NCBI GenBank assembly: GCA_039715015.1
Contig: JBDLIE010000016.1
Coordinates: forward strand, 1-64,000
From: Thermodesulfobacteriota bacterium
Lineage (GTDB): Bacteria; Desulfobacterota; Desulfobulbia; Desulfobulbales; SURF-16
Direction: 5' to 3'
Length of the DNA stretch: 64,000 nt
The notes under the pieces were generated by a model that had not been told where the DNA came from, did not search any database, and saw only the letters and a list, made by a program, of their open reading frames with translations. This document shows, piece after piece, positions 19,184 through 25,458 of the stretch (the stretch's first letter is position 1; each line of letters begins with the position of its first letter). A program made the position numbers and the translations under genes.

Positions 19184-20392
19184 TTACTGGTAGCGGTTTC
19201 TGATTGCTTTTAAGACGTCGGTGATTTCAAAAAAAATATCAACAATCTCTGGATCAAAATGTTTACCAGAGGCTGCTAGGATCTCAGCATAGATGTCTTC
19301 GTCATCCCAGGCCTCCTTGTAGGCGCGATCAGAGGAAAGGGCGTCATAAACATCAGCAAGAGCAGTGATTCTGGCCTCAAGTGGAATGGAATCGCCTCTC
19401 AGTGGTTGGCTGCCGCCGGGAAAAGATTTGTCTGGTGAGAGGTCAATAGAGCCGGGATAGCCACTTCCATCCCATTTCTCATGGTGGTGCAGTGCAATAT
19501 CCATGCTCATTTTGTCCAGGTGGGATGTGGTGTTGCTAAAGAGCCGGGCGCCAAGGACAGTATGCTGTTTAATCTTCGTGAACTCAGAGGAGTTTAGCCG
19601 CCCAGGTTTTTGTAGGATGATGTCGGCGATGCCGACCTTGCCAACATCATGAAGCATGGCAGCAAGACGAATCATATCGTGCCGGGATTTAAGCTCTTGG
19701 GAGTCAATATTGTTGACGATGGCCCAGCGCCGGAATATCTCAGCACTGTAGGCGCCAACCCTTTGAACATGGGCGCCGGTTTCCTTGGGGTCATGGAGCT
19801 CTGACATCTTTACCATCCGCAGGATAAGCTCTCTATTCATAACACCCCTTTCAATAGCAACAGCGGCATTGTTGGAAAAGAGCTGAAGATAGGTCTGTAT
19901 CTTTTCTGAAAACGGGATGGGCGTTTTGTTTTCGTCCAGGGCGTTAATAAGCTGCATTACCCCGGTTATCTGGTGATTAAAGGAATGAAGGGGGATGGCA
20001 AGAATGGAAACGGTCCGGTAGGAAAACTCTTTGTCAAAGGATGAATTGAAGGTACAGGGCAGGTGGCGGGGGAGATTATAGGCGTCATCAATGGCGATGG
20101 TTTCACCGGTTAGGGCGGCATGGCCGACGATGGAGGCATTGGTGCAGGGAACGTTGAGGTTGGTGTACTGGGCGGCCCGGTTGCCGTCCTCGCCATAGAG
20201 GCTGTCGTTTTGGACCTGGTTGAAGACCAGACTTTTGTCCTGGGTCAGGAAGATGGAGCCGGCATCTGCATTGGCAAGGCGGCGGGCCTTGTACAGAATG
20301 CGATCCAAGATCATATCAATATCATTAAGTTGGTCAAGCTCCTTAATGGCATTGAGGATGGAGAGTACCACTTCATCTGGCTGTTGCTGCAT
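19184..20392 (-). CDS. GAF + HD-GYP cyclic-di-GMP phosphodiesterase
   Basis: N-terminal GAF domain; HDVGK, HHEKWDGSGYP, ADVYDAL and RAYK. Confidence 0.92.
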   Translation of the reverse strand: MQQQPDEVVLSILNAIKELDQLNDIDMILDRILYKARRLANADAGSIFLTQDKSLVFNQVQNDSLYGEDGNRAAQYTNLNVPCTNASIVGHAALTGETIAIDDAYNLPRHLPCTFNSSFDKEFSYRTVSILAIPLHSFNHQITGVMQLINALDENKTPIPFSEKIQTYLQLFSNNAAVAIERGVMNRELILRMVKMSELHDPKETGAHVQRVGAYSAEIFRRWAIVNNIDSQELKSRHDMIRLAAMLHDVGKVGIADIILQKPGRLNSSEFTKIKQHTVLGARLFSNTTSHLDKMSMDIALHHHEKWDGSGYPGSIDLSPDKSFPGGSQPLRGDSIPLEARITALADVYDALSSDRAYKEAWDDEDIYAEILAASGKHFDPEIVDIFFEITDVLKAIRNRYQ

Positions 20393-20476
20393 AAAGAAAC
20401 CTTTAGTGAAAAAGGGCAAAAAAAGCGGTCAACTTAATTTACAGGGATATTATAGGGTGAAGTGATAAAAAAAAGA

Positions 20477-20618
20477 AAGGCCACCTTGAAAAAATGCTGT
20501 TTCGCTTGATTGCCGCGTCACAGCCAAAGAATAAGGCTCAACATGTCTAGTATGATATGTTTTTCTTTTGGTTGTTCCTTGAATTTTAACTAAATAATGA
20601 ACTTTTCAAGGGAGCCTT
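20477..20618. mobile_element. Degenerate MITE-like element (family C)
   Basis: Imperfect terminal inverted repeats aaggccaccttgaaaa / ttttcaagggagcctt; layout similar to 54285-54447. Confidence 0.45.
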
Positions 20619-20640
20619 AAGGCAATGGAGCCAAATAGAA

Positions 20641-20681
20641 TAAAAAAGGGGCCTGAGCAATATGCTCAGGCCCCTTTTTTA
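20641..20681 (-). terminator. Intrinsic terminator ending the tusA-dsrE-like unit
   Basis: taaaaaaggggcctgagca-ata-tgctcaggcccctttttta hairpin with A/T tails. Confidence 0.9.
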
Positions 20682-20708
20682 GATATATCTACTACTAACT
20701 TGAGCAAT

Positions 20709-20885
20709 CTACCACCAGCTGATGGTCTGATCTGCCTCGGAAATCATATCAACAAGCTTTGCGTAATCAGGTGATTCAACATCAAGGTTGAATTCAACAT
20801 TGTCGCGATCAGCGGAAACGATCTCTTTGAGCTTCTTGACATCATCGGTGATCTCAGCGGACCGCATAACGTGTAAGATTTTCAT
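20709..20885 (-). CDS. Small DsrH/TusB-like protein (58 aa, not in ORF track)
   Basis: My translation is MKILHVMRSAEITDDVKKLKEIVSADRDNVEFNLDVESPDYAKLVDMISEADQTISWW, with a GGAG RBS upstream. The N-terminal LH and C-terminal DY..LV.....D...SW resemble DsrH/TusB. Confidence 0.8.
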   Translation of the reverse strand: MKILHVMRSAEITDDVKKLKEIVSADRDNVEFNLDVESPDYAKLVDMISEADQTISWW

Positions 20886-20916
20886 CTTGATAACTCCGTA
20901 TTGAGGTTAATAGGTC

Positions 20917-21249
20917 TTAGCTTTTATCAGCTCTCAGAATACCGTAGGGGATGATATACTCAACATCCCGCAGCTTCTGGCCAAGCTCTTCCAAAGTAGT
21001 CTGGGTGAGGCCAAAATTCTCGGCGTTACACTCAGGCAGGGTAAAGCAATCGCCCTCCATGTCACGGAGCCATTCAACGTTTTCCATGTGGTACTCTTTC
21101 ATGTCTTTCTCGTTAACAGCAAGATCATTCAAGTCATTGTACATAACACAGCCGTAAGCATACATGTTCTCTACGGCAAGACCAAGAGCGGAGCGAATAC
21201 CATCAAGGGTGTATTCCCTGCTGGGCATTAAGAAAAATACTTTAGACAT
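20917..21249 (-). CDS. Hypothetical protein, DsrF/TusC-like
   Basis: DGIRSALGL and the terminal LEELGQKLRDVEYIIPY resemble DsrE/F-fold ends; sits between the DsrE-like and DsrH-like genes. Confidence 0.65.
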   Translation of the reverse strand: MSKVFFLMPSREYTLDGIRSALGLAVENMYAYGCVMYNDLNDLAVNEKDMKEYHMENVEWLRDMEGDCFTLPECNAENFGLTQTTLEELGQKLRDVEYIIPYGILRADKS

Positions 21250-21261
21250 TGTGTTCTCTCC

Positions 21262-21579
21262 TTATAAGCTCAGGTAGCAGTCATAGTCTTCGATGATAGC
21301 GCCATGCTGGGCCTGGGTGGCCATCTTAGTGCTGTCAAGACCTTCCGGGATGTCCTCAATGTCATAGCCAGCTTTCTTGTAGCTATCAACACAGATGGAA
21401 ACATCAACACCGTCCATTGCACAGAGCTTAGGAAACGCGCTGCATTTGGTCAGGTGAGTTGCAAACCAGGTAAAGAAAACCTTAACCTTGGCACCTTTAG
21501 CTACCGCGGCTTCGGTGACGCCCATAACATGCCGCATGTGCTGAGGAGATGTAACAAAAATACCAATACTCTTCGCCAT
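21262..21579 (-). CDS. DsrE-family sulfur relay protein
   Basis: AAVAKG..VKVFFT, conserved Cys in VSICVDS, terminal D...SL. Confidence 0.8.
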   Translation of the reverse strand: MAKSIGIFVTSPQHMRHVMGVTEAAVAKGAKVKVFFTWFATHLTKCSAFPKLCAMDGVDVSICVDSYKKAGYDIEDIPEGLDSTKMATQAQHGAIIEDYDCYLSL

Positions 21580-21601
21580 TTTATCCTCCAGATTTAAAAA
21601 G

Positions 21602-21632
21602 AAAAAAAGGCATATTCAGGAGTGAATATGCC
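21602..21632 (-). terminator. Internal terminator-like hairpin between tusA and the dsrE-like gene
   Basis: Minus strand reads GGCATATTCA-CTCC-TGAATATGCC followed by T7. Confidence 0.7.
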
Positions 21633-21658
21633 GTTAACTCAGATTGAGTGGGTTTCAA

Positions 21659-21916
21659 CTATTGTTTTTTCAAGTAGAAACGAATGAAACCAGAATCTTC
21701 TTTCTCTCCGAGGTACTCATGACCAGAGCGAGAGCACCAGCCAGGAAGATCGTTACGAGAACCTGGGTCAGTACCGAGGATTTCAAGGATTTCGCCGGCA
21801 TTAATTTTGTCGATCTCTTTTTTGGTGCGCAGCAGTGGCATGGGGCAGCTCAGACCTTTTGCATCCAAGGTGCGTGCAACTTCAAGTCCGTCAGGTGCGG
21901 TTAAATGATCACTCAT
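21659..21916 (-). CDS. tusA: TusA-family sulfur carrier protein
   Basis: LDAKGLSCPMP (CPxP motif) and TDPGSRND. Confidence 0.92.
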   Translation of the reverse strand: MSDHLTAPDGLEVARTLDAKGLSCPMPLLRTKKEIDKINAGEILEILGTDPGSRNDLPGWCSRSGHEYLGEKEDSGFIRFYLKKQ

Positions 21917-22023
21917 GGGGATCCTCCGTCAAAAAAAATTAGGTAAATTAAACACATGCGGCAGTGCCGCTTTAACCTCTCATGCGCCTATTGGCACAGG
22001 ATATAGCAAATTAAGATTTAAAG

Positions 22024-22074
22024 TGTCTAACAGGAATGGGGGGGGGTGTCAAGAGATAATGAATAGCGATTCAT
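22024..22074 (-). promoter_or_regulatory. Putative sigma70 promoter for tusA plus an upstream palindrome
   Basis: Minus strand TTGACA (22047-22052), a 17-nt spacer containing C9, then TG-n-TAGACA (22024-22029). Palindrome ATGAAT-AGCG-ATTCAT at 22059-22074. Confidence 0.5.
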
Positions 22075-22529
22075 ATCCGCTTTTTTGGGGGTGTAGACGG
22101 CCCTGGAAAAATGAGATGCCATTCAGCGAATTCTGGAAAAAAGCCGCCCCAATAAGTCATCTTATATTAGCCAGTTATCTATTTTTGGACGCAGCCTTGG
22201 CCCGTTGAAAAAATAAACGAGGAACACATCATTCTTGACAAACTAAAGCGCCATGGGTAATGAGGTTAGCTTTGACATTTTTATAACCGCTAAATTAATT
22301 AACTGATGGATATTTCGACTGATTAGGTATGAATACTTGGTCTGTTGTTAGATCCTTTAAGAAAGGGTTTGCGAAAAAAAATGAGATGGGTGCCGATTGG
22401 CGGTAATTCATTTCTTTTTTGGGCCGCAAAAGTTGGCAAATCCACGATCTGCTGGCCCCTCATTTCACACCTAAGGTTTTGGAGAGAACCGTGATTGAAT
22501 GGGCAGCATACTGAGGAAGAGGAGAAATT

Positions 22530-23840
22530 ATGAGTGAAGGAAGCATTATAGGCAACAAGGTCGGCGACCTGTACAAGCGTCTCTGTAAGGACGAATGGAA
22601 CCCGACAATCACCGGCCTTTCAGTCGGCCTCTTGAGTGTTTTGATCATGGCCTGGTGGCGTCCTTGGGGTGCTGTGGGCGCCATTCGCAACTGGGGCGAT
22701 TGGATGATGCACGGTTTTGCCAATATGGTTGGCGCCGAAGACGGCTTTCTGGAACTCTTTATTGAGGCTCCGGCCGGCTGGCTGGCAAGTTCCGGTTCCG
22801 TTATCGGTATCGGCTTTATTGGCGGCGCCTTTATCTCTGCCTGTCTGGGCGGAGATTTCGCCTTCAGAATTCCACCCCGTCTTGAGCTTGCTAAAGGTGT
22901 GATGGCCGGTATCCTGATGGGAATCGGCGCCGCCCTGTCCGGCGGCTGTAATGTCGGTGGTATGTATAACGCCATCGGTAACCTGTCAGCCAACGGCTTT
23001 ACCATGTGGCTTGGCCTGGTGATCGGTGTGGTTGTTGGTCTTAAATATATCTACTGGGAGATGTCCAATATCACCTGGGGCAGTGGTGGCGCAGCGACCT
23101 TTGATTTTCCCCAAGGTATGAAGACCTTCCTCGGCTTTGTCGGTCTTGCCGCCCTTATTATCGGCGCCATGAAATATGCCGGTATTGACGATGTTGAAGG
23201 TATTGACGCCATTGGCGGCGTGCTCTTCTCCGGTGAGAAAGATGCCGAGTATCTTCAGTCTCTCGGCGGCCTGCTGATGATTGCTGCCGGTCTCGGGTAT
23301 GCTATGCAGCGCGGACGCTGGTGTATGGTTCAGGGTTTCCGTGAACCCCATATGACCGGTGACTGTAGCCTTGCCAAGTCCGTGGCCCTGAGTATCACCG
23401 TGGTTGCCATTGGCGCTGCTGTCCTCAAGTATGGTGTGCCCATGCGCGGTGACGGTAGCCCGGTATTGGCTGAGATTAACTATGTGCGCGGCACCTTTGG
23501 TTGGGGCTCCATTGTCGGTGGCGCCATCTTCGGCTTCGGCGCCATGCTGGCCGGTGGTTGCGGTTCCGGTACCCTCTGGCGTGTTGGCGAGGGCCAGGTG
23601 AAGCTGATCCTGGTTGTGCCCTTCTTTGCCCTGGCCAACTCCCTGATGACCAAATGGTTCAAGAATTTCGGTGCTGATCAGATCAACCTGGAGCGCGAAG
23701 GCAAGCTTGGTAAATATGTCTATATGCCCGATGCAATGGGCTACACCGGTACCCTGCTTTTGATCGCTGGTATTATGATCGTCTGGTACCTGGTAGTTAC
23801 CTGGAACGAAGAGTCTAACAAGCTGATTGTTGACTTCTAG
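22530..23840 (+). CDS. YeeE/YedE-family sulfur-compound transporter
   Basis: Multi-TM and Gly-rich; three conserved Cys motifs GGCNVG, RWCM and GGCGSG. Confidence 0.9.
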   Translation: MSEGSIIGNKVGDLYKRLCKDEWNPTITGLSVGLLSVLIMAWWRPWGAVGAIRNWGDWMMHGFANMVGAEDGFLELFIEAPAGWLASSGSVIGIGFIGGAFISACLGGDFAFRIPPRLELAKGVMAGILMGIGAALSGGCNVGGMYNAIGNLSANGFTMWLGLVIGVVVGLKYIYWEMSNITWGSGGAATFDFPQGMKTFLGFVGLAALIIGAMKYAGIDDVEGIDAIGGVLFSGEKDAEYLQSLGGLLMIAAGLGYAMQRGRWCMVQGFREPHMTGDCSLAKSVALSITVVAIGAAVLKYGVPMRGDGSPVLAEINYVRGTFGWGSIVGGAIFGFGAMLAGGCGSGTLWRVGEGQVKLILVVPFFALANSLMTKWFKNFGADQINLEREGKLGKYVYMPDAMGYTGTLLLIAGIMIVWYLVVTWNEESNKLIVDF

Positions 23841-23885
23841 GTCGTGAAGAGGTAGTAAGGGCAGACTCAGGTCTGCTCTGAGCTG

Positions 23886-23922
23886 AGCGCATCCTTGCCC
23901 CGAGGCAGGATGCGCTTTTTTT
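23886..23922 (+). terminator. Intrinsic terminator
   Basis: agcgcatcct...aggatgcgct followed by a T-tract after the yeeE-like gene. Confidence 0.8.
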
Positions 23923-23940
23923 GTTGCTGGCTATGTGCGT

Positions 23941-24429
23941 TTAAAAAAGGCGCCAGATATAATAGGCCATGCCTAAGGCAATCAGAAGTTCCAGGGCAAA
24001 GGAGGCGAGGATGCCCACCACGGCGCCGGCCCCTGATTTAGCGGCTTCACGTAACTCTTTTTGTTCAAAATAGAGTTCGCAGAGAAGACCGCCGGCAAAG
24101 GCCCCGATGAATATGCCGCCTGCTATGGGAATGAAAAAGCCGATGATAAGGCCGATGGTGGCCCCCCAAATTCCTTTCTGTGAACCGCCGAAATGACGAG
24201 CTCCCAGAATGGTGAGGAGGTACTGGCTCCCCCAGGCTGCCAGGGCAAAGAGGGTCAATATCATAATATGTAATAAGGTCAGAGGCTGAAAGTCGGTGAG
24301 CAGGCCATGGATGAGGGCGCCGACAACAATGATCGATGGCCCGGGCAGGATTGGCAAAAAGGTGCCGATAATACCCATGACAAGAAAAATGACGAGAAGA
24401 AGGTCGGCAAGGGAAGGGGGCCAGGGCAT
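23941..24429 (-). CDS. DUF456-family membrane protein
   Basis: GTFLPILPG, GARHFGGS..G.WGA..G; Gly-rich TM segments. Confidence 0.85.
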   Translation of the reverse strand: MPWPPSLADLLLVIFLVMGIIGTFLPILPGPSIIVVGALIHGLLTDFQPLTLLHIMILTLFALAAWGSQYLLTILGARHFGGSQKGIWGATIGLIIGFFIPIAGGIFIGAFAGGLLCELYFEQKELREAAKSGAGAVVGILASFALELLIALGMAYYIWRLF

Positions 24430-25408: not shown

Positions 25409-25458
25409 TGAAGGATGAAGGATGAAGGATGAAGGATGAAGGATGAAAGATGAAGGAT
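25409..25458. repeat. Heptamer tandem repeat (TGAAGGA)x7
   Basis: Seven units, the sixth being TGAAAGA, starting 2 nt after the uppP stop. Confidence 0.95.

Follow-up and report, generated by a model that had tools for sequence, protein, structure and literature searches.

The five-gene cluster described here is, judged from sequence and gene order, the YTD cluster, i.e. yeeE-tusA-dsrEFH type II. It likely encodes a YedE-TusA-DsrEFH type II relay that feeds sulfur to the Dsr machinery and would act on the oxidative side when S0 or polysulfide is used. The cluster lies in a stretch of 64,000 nt (the window). The yeeE/yedE gene points away from tusA, dsrE and two small ORFs, and all five genes were intact in the ORF and Pfam check (Table 1). 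The first-pass annotation had proposed a YTD-type five-gene cluster, and this was borne out: the ORFs lie where it had placed them, and synteny was found in most of the best 80 of 301 loci. The two small ORFs encode DsrF and DsrH of DsrEFH type II; listing them as hypotheticals, as it had done, is out of date (PMC13293266).

Table 1. Features of the cluster and its flanks (positions in the window)
Feature	Position	Strand	Details
Intrinsic-terminator-like hairpin after dsrH	20641..20681	-	19 pairs; z -6.5, 0/200 shuffles
dsrH type II (former CHP2)	20709..20885	-	58 aa; no Pfam match
dsrF type II (former CHP1)	20917..21249	-	110 aa; no Pfam match
dsrE type II	21262..21579	-	105 aa; Pfam DsrE E 0.002, below Pfam cut-off
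Conserved hairpin in tusA-dsrE spacer, then U-rich run and dsrE ribosome-binding site	21609..21632	-	z -3.8
tusA sulfur carrier	21659..21916	-	85 aa; Pfam PF01206 (TusA) E 7e-25; CPxP cysteine C24
Predicted sigma70-type promoter for tusA-dsrEFH	22026..22052	-	TTGACA 22052-22047
Predicted sigma70-type promoter for yeeE	22235..22263	+	TTGACA 22235-22240
yeeE/yedE-family membrane sulfur transporter	22530..23840	+	436 aa; Pfam PF04143 (Sulf_transp) E 1e-40
Intrinsic-terminator-like hairpin and U-run after yeeE	about 23885..23922	+	z -3.1, 2/200 shuffles

The 301 loci were retrieved by dsrF alignment, and synteny was counted on the best 80. The five-gene arrangement is not due to chance, because 73–78 of the best 80 of 301 loci share each gene (dsrE and the syntenic dsrH homologue 78 each, tusA 75, yeeE 73). 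In the same 80 loci, yeeE was divergent in 69 and co-directional in 4, and missing genes were all at locus ends except dsrH in L101.

The five proteins and their synteny were compared with a disproportionator, as the first-pass annotation had suggested, and strain M19 (locus L061) matched: the gene order was the same and the identities across the five proteins were 56/77/73/61/66%. S0 disproportionation supports the growth of strain M19, and Table S5 of PMC13293266 lists the strain as a carrier of YeeE-TusA-DsrEFH type II. Orthology to this published carrier rests on identity and synteny. The link to the Electronema aureum proteins runs via M19, the subunit masses and one primer motif. Compared with the type II cluster of PMC13293266, the genes, their order, the subunit sizes, the DsrE cysteine with its motif and the reductive-type dsrABD host were all alike. 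There was no gene difference of substance; DsrF of this host is without a conserved cysteine.

The 110-aa protein has a DsrF-like fold according to its AlphaFold2 model (pLDDT 90.5). The top 11 Foldseek rows were all DsrE/F-family folds, with Allochromatium vinosum DsrF (2HY5_B) at rank 3 (E 0.002, probability 1.00) and TusBCD (2D1P) at ranks 6–7. Its mass is 12,736 Da, and that of E. aureum DsrF is 12,725 Da. DsrH has a mass of 6,740 Da (6,814 Da in E. aureum) and a lone-chain model with a pLDDT of 95; in Foldseek, the lone DsrH-like chain had no match at E 0.001.

DsrE, DsrF and DsrH are predicted to form a heterotrimer. The trimer model scored 0.92, and the best control scored 0.59. In the calibration, which used pairs and not trimers, 116 of 157 solved pairs attained the score mark, as did 2 of 215 mismatched ones. 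Contacts agreed to at least 96% between trimer runs, and partner pLDDT was at least 91. The score may stem from resemblance to solved DsrEFH and TusBCD complexes. Type I DsrEFH of A. vinosum (2HY5) and E. coli TusBCD (2D1P) belong to the same fold family as DsrE and DsrF of this cluster, and the likeness would extend to the predicted assembly of three different subunits, of which E has the single active cysteine. They differ in that sequence identity in the fold matches is just 8–15%, DsrH here has only 58 aa, and this cluster has no link to oxidative dsrAB or tRNA genes. None of the E, F and H subunits had a type I match in NCBIfam. A PDB sequence search with the DsrE profile returned no 2HY5 or 2D1P chain, only one weak row (2QS7, E 0.67).

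The candidate sulfur-carrying cysteines are highly conserved. DsrE C63 was present in 77/77 relatives, within an invariant I-C-x-D-S-Y motif. The published E. aureum Cys67Ser primer, as given in the accessible part of its source, reads A-I-x-A-D-S in frame and agrees with this motif. Cys63 of DsrE, a protein 73% identical to that of strain M19, thus probably corresponds to Cys67, the active cysteine in Electronema aureum. TusA C24 was found in 75/75 relatives and C61 in 74/75. TusA scored under the NCBIfam cut-offs of TusA, YedF and YeeD, and the TsuB model gave 16 bits (cut-off 147.5).

The transporter is the sole PF04143 gene of the host genome. Its channel cysteines C140, C265 and C344 were present in 69/69 relatives, and a fourth conserved cysteine, C19, in 68/69. 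C265, C344 and C140 align with C22, C91 and C293 of TsuA, so that all three channel cysteines are present. In the alignment to PDB 6LEO, residues 250–369 correspond to 7–116 and residues 78–165 to 234–315. The transporter halves are therefore in YedE order, swapped relative to Spirochaeta thermophila TsuA, and the motif order was kept in 69/69 relatives. The alignments indicate that the half order is a subfamily trait and not new, because the NCBIfam YedE/FdhT selenium model matches end to end (74 bits, cut-off 350). A narrow search of partly accessible literature returned no statement on the half swap.

The TsuA-TsuB (YeeE-YeeD) thiosulfate importer of E. coli and S. thermophila (6LEO, 8J4C; PMC7449682) shares the YeeE/YedE family, the three channel cysteines and a TusA-fold neighbour with this cluster. 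It differs in the reversed halves and in length (436 aa here, about 340 aa in TsuA), and the transporter fails the TsuA NCBIfam models widely, with 72–74 bits against cut-offs of 400 and 645. Moreover, the E. aureum relay proteins take no sulfur from thiosulfate: in vitro, it did not persulfidate TusA, DsrEFH or DsrC (PMC13293266). Thiosulfate as a sulfur source, one of the two sources named by the first-pass annotation, was accordingly not borne out. A model for the import step, by description, is SoxT1A of Hyphomicrobium denitrificans, a YeeE-like protein for which genetics has shown sulfur delivery to oxidation in the cytoplasm; it differs in feeding sHdr in a Sox-containing alphaproteobacterium and in its size of 330–350 aa (PMC11582611).

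Terminators at both cluster ends had been proposed from the sequence, and both hairpins folded better than their shuffles. A comparable element followed dsrH in 69 of 76 relatives and yeeE in 60 of 65 (own scan, without shuffle control). The right-hand hairpin was missed by a simple scanner and recovered by shuffle folding. Rfam gave four matches on 20300-24100; each lay on the left terminator hairpin and scored under the gathering threshold, and they were rejected as chance.

The hairpin in the tusA-dsrE spacer was not mentioned in the first-pass annotation. A hairpin of -9 kcal/mol or stronger was found in 62 of 72 tusA-dsrE spacers, and 52 of these 62 end 20–30 nt before the dsrE start. In 41 hand-picked spacers, 9/9 pairs varied on both sides, and covariation was 0.56 (0.21 shuffled, at most 0.21 slid). 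Candidate roles are either an attenuator or a processing/stability element. The strict terminator rule was passed by 37 of 75 spacers only, and the hairpin is not called a terminator. It is unmentioned in the main text of PMC13293266, and a narrow search found no statement on it in the accessible literature.

Both predicted promoters were invariant in 8/8 close relatives. TTGAC[AT] occurred toward tusA in 64 of 65 spacers and toward yeeE in 63 of 65 (both without shuffle control). As the predicted promoters of yeeE and tusA-dsrEFH are separate, separate regulation is possible. Separate predicted promoters also fit the Dissulfuribacter proteomes, in which YedE and TusA are reported to shift in opposite directions. 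Whether the long 5' region of yeeE encodes a leader peptide was considered as well, and the idea was dropped; by eye, the frame was broken by indels between close relatives.

The rest of the host genome was searched for dsrAB, aprAB and sat, as had been suggested, and all were present. dsrA and dsrB were over cut-off, and the adjacent dsrD suggests that DsrAB is of the reductive type. The host also has dsrC, qmoABC, two napA and, read by eye, dsrMKJOP-like ORFs. Its AprB is short (141 aa); truncated AprB is order-wide and was not used as evidence. A separate YedF over cut-off, a second tusA elsewhere in the genome and a formate dehydrogenase, probably with selenocysteine, were found. MOLY-like and Eyh-like genes are present as well; neither is diagnostic of disproportionation, nor is YTD. 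The YTD identity and the host dsr genes argue for the import and persulfide-relay module that the first-pass annotation had proposed, here in a host with Dsr; this part of its reading is retained.

In the cable bacteria, SQR is the proposed polysulfide source (PMC13293266), whereas none was detected in this host: there was no candidate among 27 PF07992 matches or by motif scan. Two size-matched ORFs resemble NDH-2-like proteins and were rejected. With the confirmed SQR of a relative as query, only an NDH-2 N-terminus matched in the host, and nothing at 1e-30. A divergent SQR type could have been overlooked. Within the genus, cluster dsrE was found in 8/8 genomes and SQR in 1/8. A NiFe hydrogenase was not found in the host genome either. 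This absence could be an assembly gap, because 7/7 congeners have the enzyme and hypD, mostly a few kb apart. The gene complement makes S0 use by the host plausible.

The proposed relay has four steps. The YedE-type protein would pass sulfane sulfur via its three-cysteine channel, and TusA Cys24 would take it up. TusA would then load DsrE Cys63 in the DsrEFH trimer, from which sulfur would move one-way to DsrC, as in E. aureum. Finally, as proposed in print, DsrMKJOP and reductive-type DsrABD working in reverse would yield sulfite, and AprAB and Sat would yield sulfate. Nitrate, through the two NapA systems, would be the electron acceptor, or else sulfur itself, which would amount to disproportionation. 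The first-pass annotation had treated the mechanism as unresolved, which is out of date: the transfer from TusA to the DsrE cysteine of DsrEFH and on to DsrC was demonstrated in vitro in 2026 with proteins of the cable bacterium E. aureum (PMC13293266). TusA loads DsrC directly as well in vitro, therefore DsrEFH is possibly dispensable. Even for the model organism, the in vivo flux direction and oxidation by reductive-type DsrAB are still unproven (PMC13293266). In this host, the relay is predicted from its genes, and the transporter substrate would be sulfane sulfur.

The original YTD proposal sees a disproportionation-specific, thiosulfate-fed module whose presence marks a disproportionator. 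The full cluster does occur in every S0 disproportionator among the surveyed Desulfobacterota (PMC12998232), YTD proteins were up during thiosulfate disproportionation in Desulfolithobacter, and the MOLY-like and Eyh-like genes of the host point the same way; Eyh, however, tracks taxonomy. The first-pass annotation had cited the proposed marker and had named commonness in non-disproportionating relatives as a refutation of its reading. Such commonness was found: of the 151 genomes of the order, 136 carry dsrF, which stands against a disproportionation-specific module. Only 25 of 63 known disproportionators are carriers according to the accessible part of PMC13293266. Many carriers are described as sulfate reducers only, and the published tables, as far as accessible, include non-disproportionators. 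Thermodesulfatator indicus is a carrier, yet it did not disproportionate. Dissulfuribacter on thiosulfate had YTD YedE down and TusA up, and thiosulfate left the relay proteins without persulfidation, as described above. The marker reading is thus largely refuted, and the proposal as a whole is improbable. Because the cluster is common across the host's order, it is by itself no proof that the host disproportionates sulfur. Of the suggestion that this host may do so, the possibility of S0 disproportionation stands on whole-genome grounds, but the cluster gives no ground for it.

The same near-core status of dsrF in the order would suit a relay in the reductive direction, or a housekeeping one, in which a sulfate or sulfur reducer passes imported or stray sulfane sulfur to DsrC, either to reduce it to sulfide or to detoxify it. 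We consider this quite improbable. In oxidisers, it is type I DsrEFH that supplies sulfur to DsrC, cluster genes are strongly expressed in sulfide-oxidising cable bacteria, and sulfur oxidation was positive in 4 of 5 carriers tested; against this, sulfate or sulfite reduction is the metabolism described for 35 of 46 cultured carriers (both counts from the accessible part of PMC13293266). Both tusA genes of D. dismutans were unregulated, both YeeE/YedE proteins of Dissulfuribacter were higher under H2/sulfite, and the host has the probable selenocysteine formate dehydrogenase, all of which would fit the reductive direction. Biosynthetic sulfur or selenium carriers, either for TusA/TusBCD-like tRNA thiolation or as a YedE-YedF selenium system, are very improbable. 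The DsrF model also matches TusBCD (2D1P), and the YedE/FdhT selenium model covers the transporter over its full length, but NCBIfam TusB, TusC and TusD had no match at E 0.1, TusA is under its equivalog cut-off, and the separate YedF and second tusA lie elsewhere in the genome. Moreover, in 73.9% of carriers the published distribution goes with reductive dsrAB, as stated in the accessible part of PMC13293266. The relay towards oxidation by the Dsr machinery is the reading we prefer.

This copy of the cluster adds little by itself; 985 genomes with the cluster have been catalogued before, and its core chemistry is known from publications. What is gained is the naming of the small ORFs as DsrF and DsrH and the finding that the cluster is not a disproportionation marker. 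The leads are dsrE in 8/8 and SQR in 1/8 genomes of the genus, the conserved tusA-dsrE hairpin and the separate predicted promoters. A more far-reaching picture, which we regard as speculative and rather doubtful, is that of a sulfur specialist that has lost hydrogenases and lacks SQR. The relay would be its sole route for sulfur into the Dsr pathway, external S0 or polysulfide would sustain it through oxidation with nitrate or disproportionation, and the covarying hairpin would be an undescribed RNA element setting the TusA:DsrEFH ratio across the order. Sulfur oxidation and disproportionation by organisms with reductive-type DsrAB is a live question. If the picture is true, the host would be a natural test of whether DsrEFH type II lets reductive-type DsrAB reverse without sulfide oxidation.

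The first-pass annotation's five-gene cluster with hairpins at both ends was borne out. All five ORFs are intact, a ribosome-binding site was read by eye ahead of each, and the left and right end hairpins folded better than shuffled sequence. The set is almost certainly the known YTD system (yeeE-tusA-dsrEFH type II).

Features of the cluster and other loci. Plain positions refer to the window; L numbers are handles of DNA stretches in the host genome (G000), except L032 (a relative)
Feature	Position	Strand	Remarks
yeeE/yedE-type membrane protein, 436 aa	22530-23840	+	Pfam Sulf_transp
tusA, 85 aa	21659-21916	-	Pfam TusA
dsrE, 105 aa	21262-21579	-	weak Pfam DsrE match
dsrF, 110 aa	20917-21249	-	without Pfam family
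dsrH, 58 aa	20709-20885	-	without Pfam family
Predicted yeeE 5' leader	22265-22529		
GltD/SudA-like iron-sulfur flavoprotein, 470 aa	15517-16929	+	Fer4_20 and Pyr_redox_2; 4 kb from cluster
Short tandem run	25413-25458		7-nt unit, ~6 copies; directly after bacA/uppP
Second tusA, 82 aa	G000:C4:25104-25349 = L122:8104-8349	-	64% identical to cluster TusA
Additional DsrC-family protein	L131:1450-1803	-	
Additional DsrC-family protein	L132:419-895	+	
CoA-disulfide-reductase-like flavoprotein, 574 aa	L120:5395-7116	-	~120 extra C-terminal residues; between sat and dsrAB, ~3 kb upstream of dsrA
napA locus, then two tetraheme cytochromes and DsrO-like, DsrP-like genes	L125:3662-9970	-	
Phs/Psr-like molybdopterin subunit, then Rieske and cytochrome b genes	L124:4503-7998	-	not the usual B and C subunits
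Frameshifted tusA, one same-family relative	L032:1167-1417		possibly assembly error

An alignment of dsrF against a genome collection gave 301 loci, and the best 80 were analysed. Among these 80, dsrE and dsrH were each present in 78, tusA in 75 and yeeE in 73 (divergent in 69, co-directional in 4). Missing genes lay at locus ends in every case except one.

The proposed comparison with a characterised disproportionator gave a match. In strain M19, an S0 disproportionator (PMC12243485) and one of the carriers in Table S5 of PMC13293266 (in excerpt), the gene order is kept and identities are 56% (yeeE), 77% (tusA), 73% (dsrE), 61% (dsrF) and 66% (dsrH). Cys63 of DsrE is kept in all 77 relatives, Cys24 of TusA in all 75; the DsrF cysteines are kept in only 9–11 of 78. 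Compared by mass, DsrF has 12,736 Da (12,725 Da in Electronema aureum) and DsrH 6,740 Da (6,814 Da). The DsrF structure model reached a pLDDT of 90.5, and the top 11 rows of its fold search were all DsrE/F-family folds, with A. vinosum DsrF at rank 3. The lone DsrH-like model had no significant match in the fold search. In a three-chain model, the 58-aa partner scored 0.92 versus 0.59 for the best control; the calibration mark was reached by 116 of 157 solved pairs and 2 of 215 mismatched pairs. Contact agreement between runs was at least 96% and partner pLDDT at least 91. This pass may stem from likeness to already solved complexes. An independent genomic study arrived at the same structural assignment of the proteins as PMC13293266 (PMC13047784, in excerpt).

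For E. aureum, the available part of PMC13293266 reports that recombinant DsrE, DsrF and DsrH co-purify 1:1:1, that TusA-DsrE sulfur exchange needs DsrE Cys67 and that transfer from DsrEFH to DsrC is one-directional. In the host, sulfur would probably be relayed through the cluster to DsrC in the oxidative direction. Thiosulfate, an earlier candidate for the sulfur source, fared poorly: the transporter gives no pointer to it, and it loads none of E. aureum TusA, DsrEFH and DsrC (PMC13293266, Plum-Jensen et al. 2026, in excerpt). The transporter keeps all three channel cysteines, whose roles are taken from the accessible part of PMC7449682, and its halves are in swapped order relative to S. thermophila TsuA. 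It scored 72–74 bits on TsuA models (cut-offs 400 and 645) and aligned end to end with the YedE/FdhT model, likewise below cut-off. Judged by these alignments, it is of the YedE type. SoxT1A, which delivers sulfur to cytoplasmic oxidation (PMC11582611, in excerpt), serves as a working model for its role.

Two back-to-back TTGACA boxes between yeeE and tusA are unchanged across all 8 close relatives, and 64 and 63 of 65 spacers have boxes of this type in the two directions, as counted without a shuffle control. The paired boxes suggest that yeeE and tusA-dsrEFH are likely transcribed as separate units. This agrees with Dissulfuribacter on thiosulfate, where TusA goes up and YedE down (PMC13490349, in excerpt). 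The predicted yeeE leader is ~270 nt in the host genus versus ~110–120 nt at most other loci; it holds blocks of conserved sequence and had no Rfam match.

The tusA-dsrE spacer (hairpin at 21609-21632) holds a hairpin of -9 kcal/mol or stronger in 62 of 72 spacers, ending 20–30 nt ahead of the dsrE start in 52 of these 62; 43 of 72 reach z -2 or lower. Two-sided changes at 9 of 9 pairs, and covariation above shuffled and slid controls, were found in 41 spacers hand-picked from the 72 plus the window (near-duplicates and dissimilar-looking ones excluded), a choice that favours such outcomes. Just 37 of 75 spacers satisfied a strict terminator rule, and in E. aureum tusA-dsrEFH is taken to be a single operon (PMC13293266, in excerpt), so the hairpin may either attenuate in part or have a stabilising role.

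The host genome (3.0 Mb, completeness rated 99.99%) was searched for dsrAB, aprAB and sat, as had been advised, and all were found, dsrA and dsrB with dsrD adjoining, as were dsrC and qmoABC. Further ORFs were judged dsrMKJOP-like by eye only. Also present are CODH/ACS genes, two napA loci, a 99-aa Eyh-like protein distinct from FlhB and a MOLY-like molybdopterin cluster in the order chaperone-A-B, whose MolyA-like gene is closely matched in 7 of 8 genomes within the genus. SQR was not found in the host genome; the same query found it in 1 of 8 genomes of the genus. NiFe hydrogenase and hypD, present in 7 of 7 congeners, were not found in the host genome, by either true loss or an assembly gap.

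The second tusA stands alone, and neither dsrEFH nor yeeE adjoins it; D. dismutans likewise has two tusA genes. Instead of the canonical ending, the C-termini of the additional DsrC-family proteins carry an extended tail in which two cysteines stand next to each other; these proteins are possible alternative sulfur acceptors. The flavoprotein near dsrA is of persulfide reductase size. The GltD/SudA-like flavoprotein has no adjacent partner subunit among the listed ORFs. The DsrP-like gene scored above the DsrP model cut-off; its locus, one of the two napA loci, resembles the DsrOhPh-tetrahaem module of cable bacteria (PMC13047784, in excerpt), here joined to NapA. The Phs/Psr-like arrangement was also matched in most congeners.

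As a marker of disproportionation, a proposal cited in the first-pass annotation, the cluster does not hold up. That annotation had named commonness in non-disproportionating relatives as a ground for refutation, and the counts below bear this out. According to the excerpted PMC13293266, no more than 25 of the 63 disproportionators in culture have dsrEFH type II, and the 46 carriers in culture include 35 sulfate/sulfite reducers, 14 of which also disproportionate. No disproportionation was seen in T. indicus, another carrier of the cluster (PMC9676032, in excerpt). dsrF was present in 136 of 151 genomes (at least 90% complete) sampled from the host's order, where it is near-core. In a sample of 41 related genomes, the host's included, 33 had dsrE, as did 7 of 7 congeners. 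Novak et al. surveyed S0 disproportionators of this group, found YTD in every one and rank it among the best candidate markers, but insufficient alone; none of the inventory genes is diagnostic either (PMC12998232, in excerpt). Plain sulfate reduction could be supported by the host's formate dehydrogenase, and the gene inventory fits use of S0 or polysulfide, with nitrate or by disproportionation.
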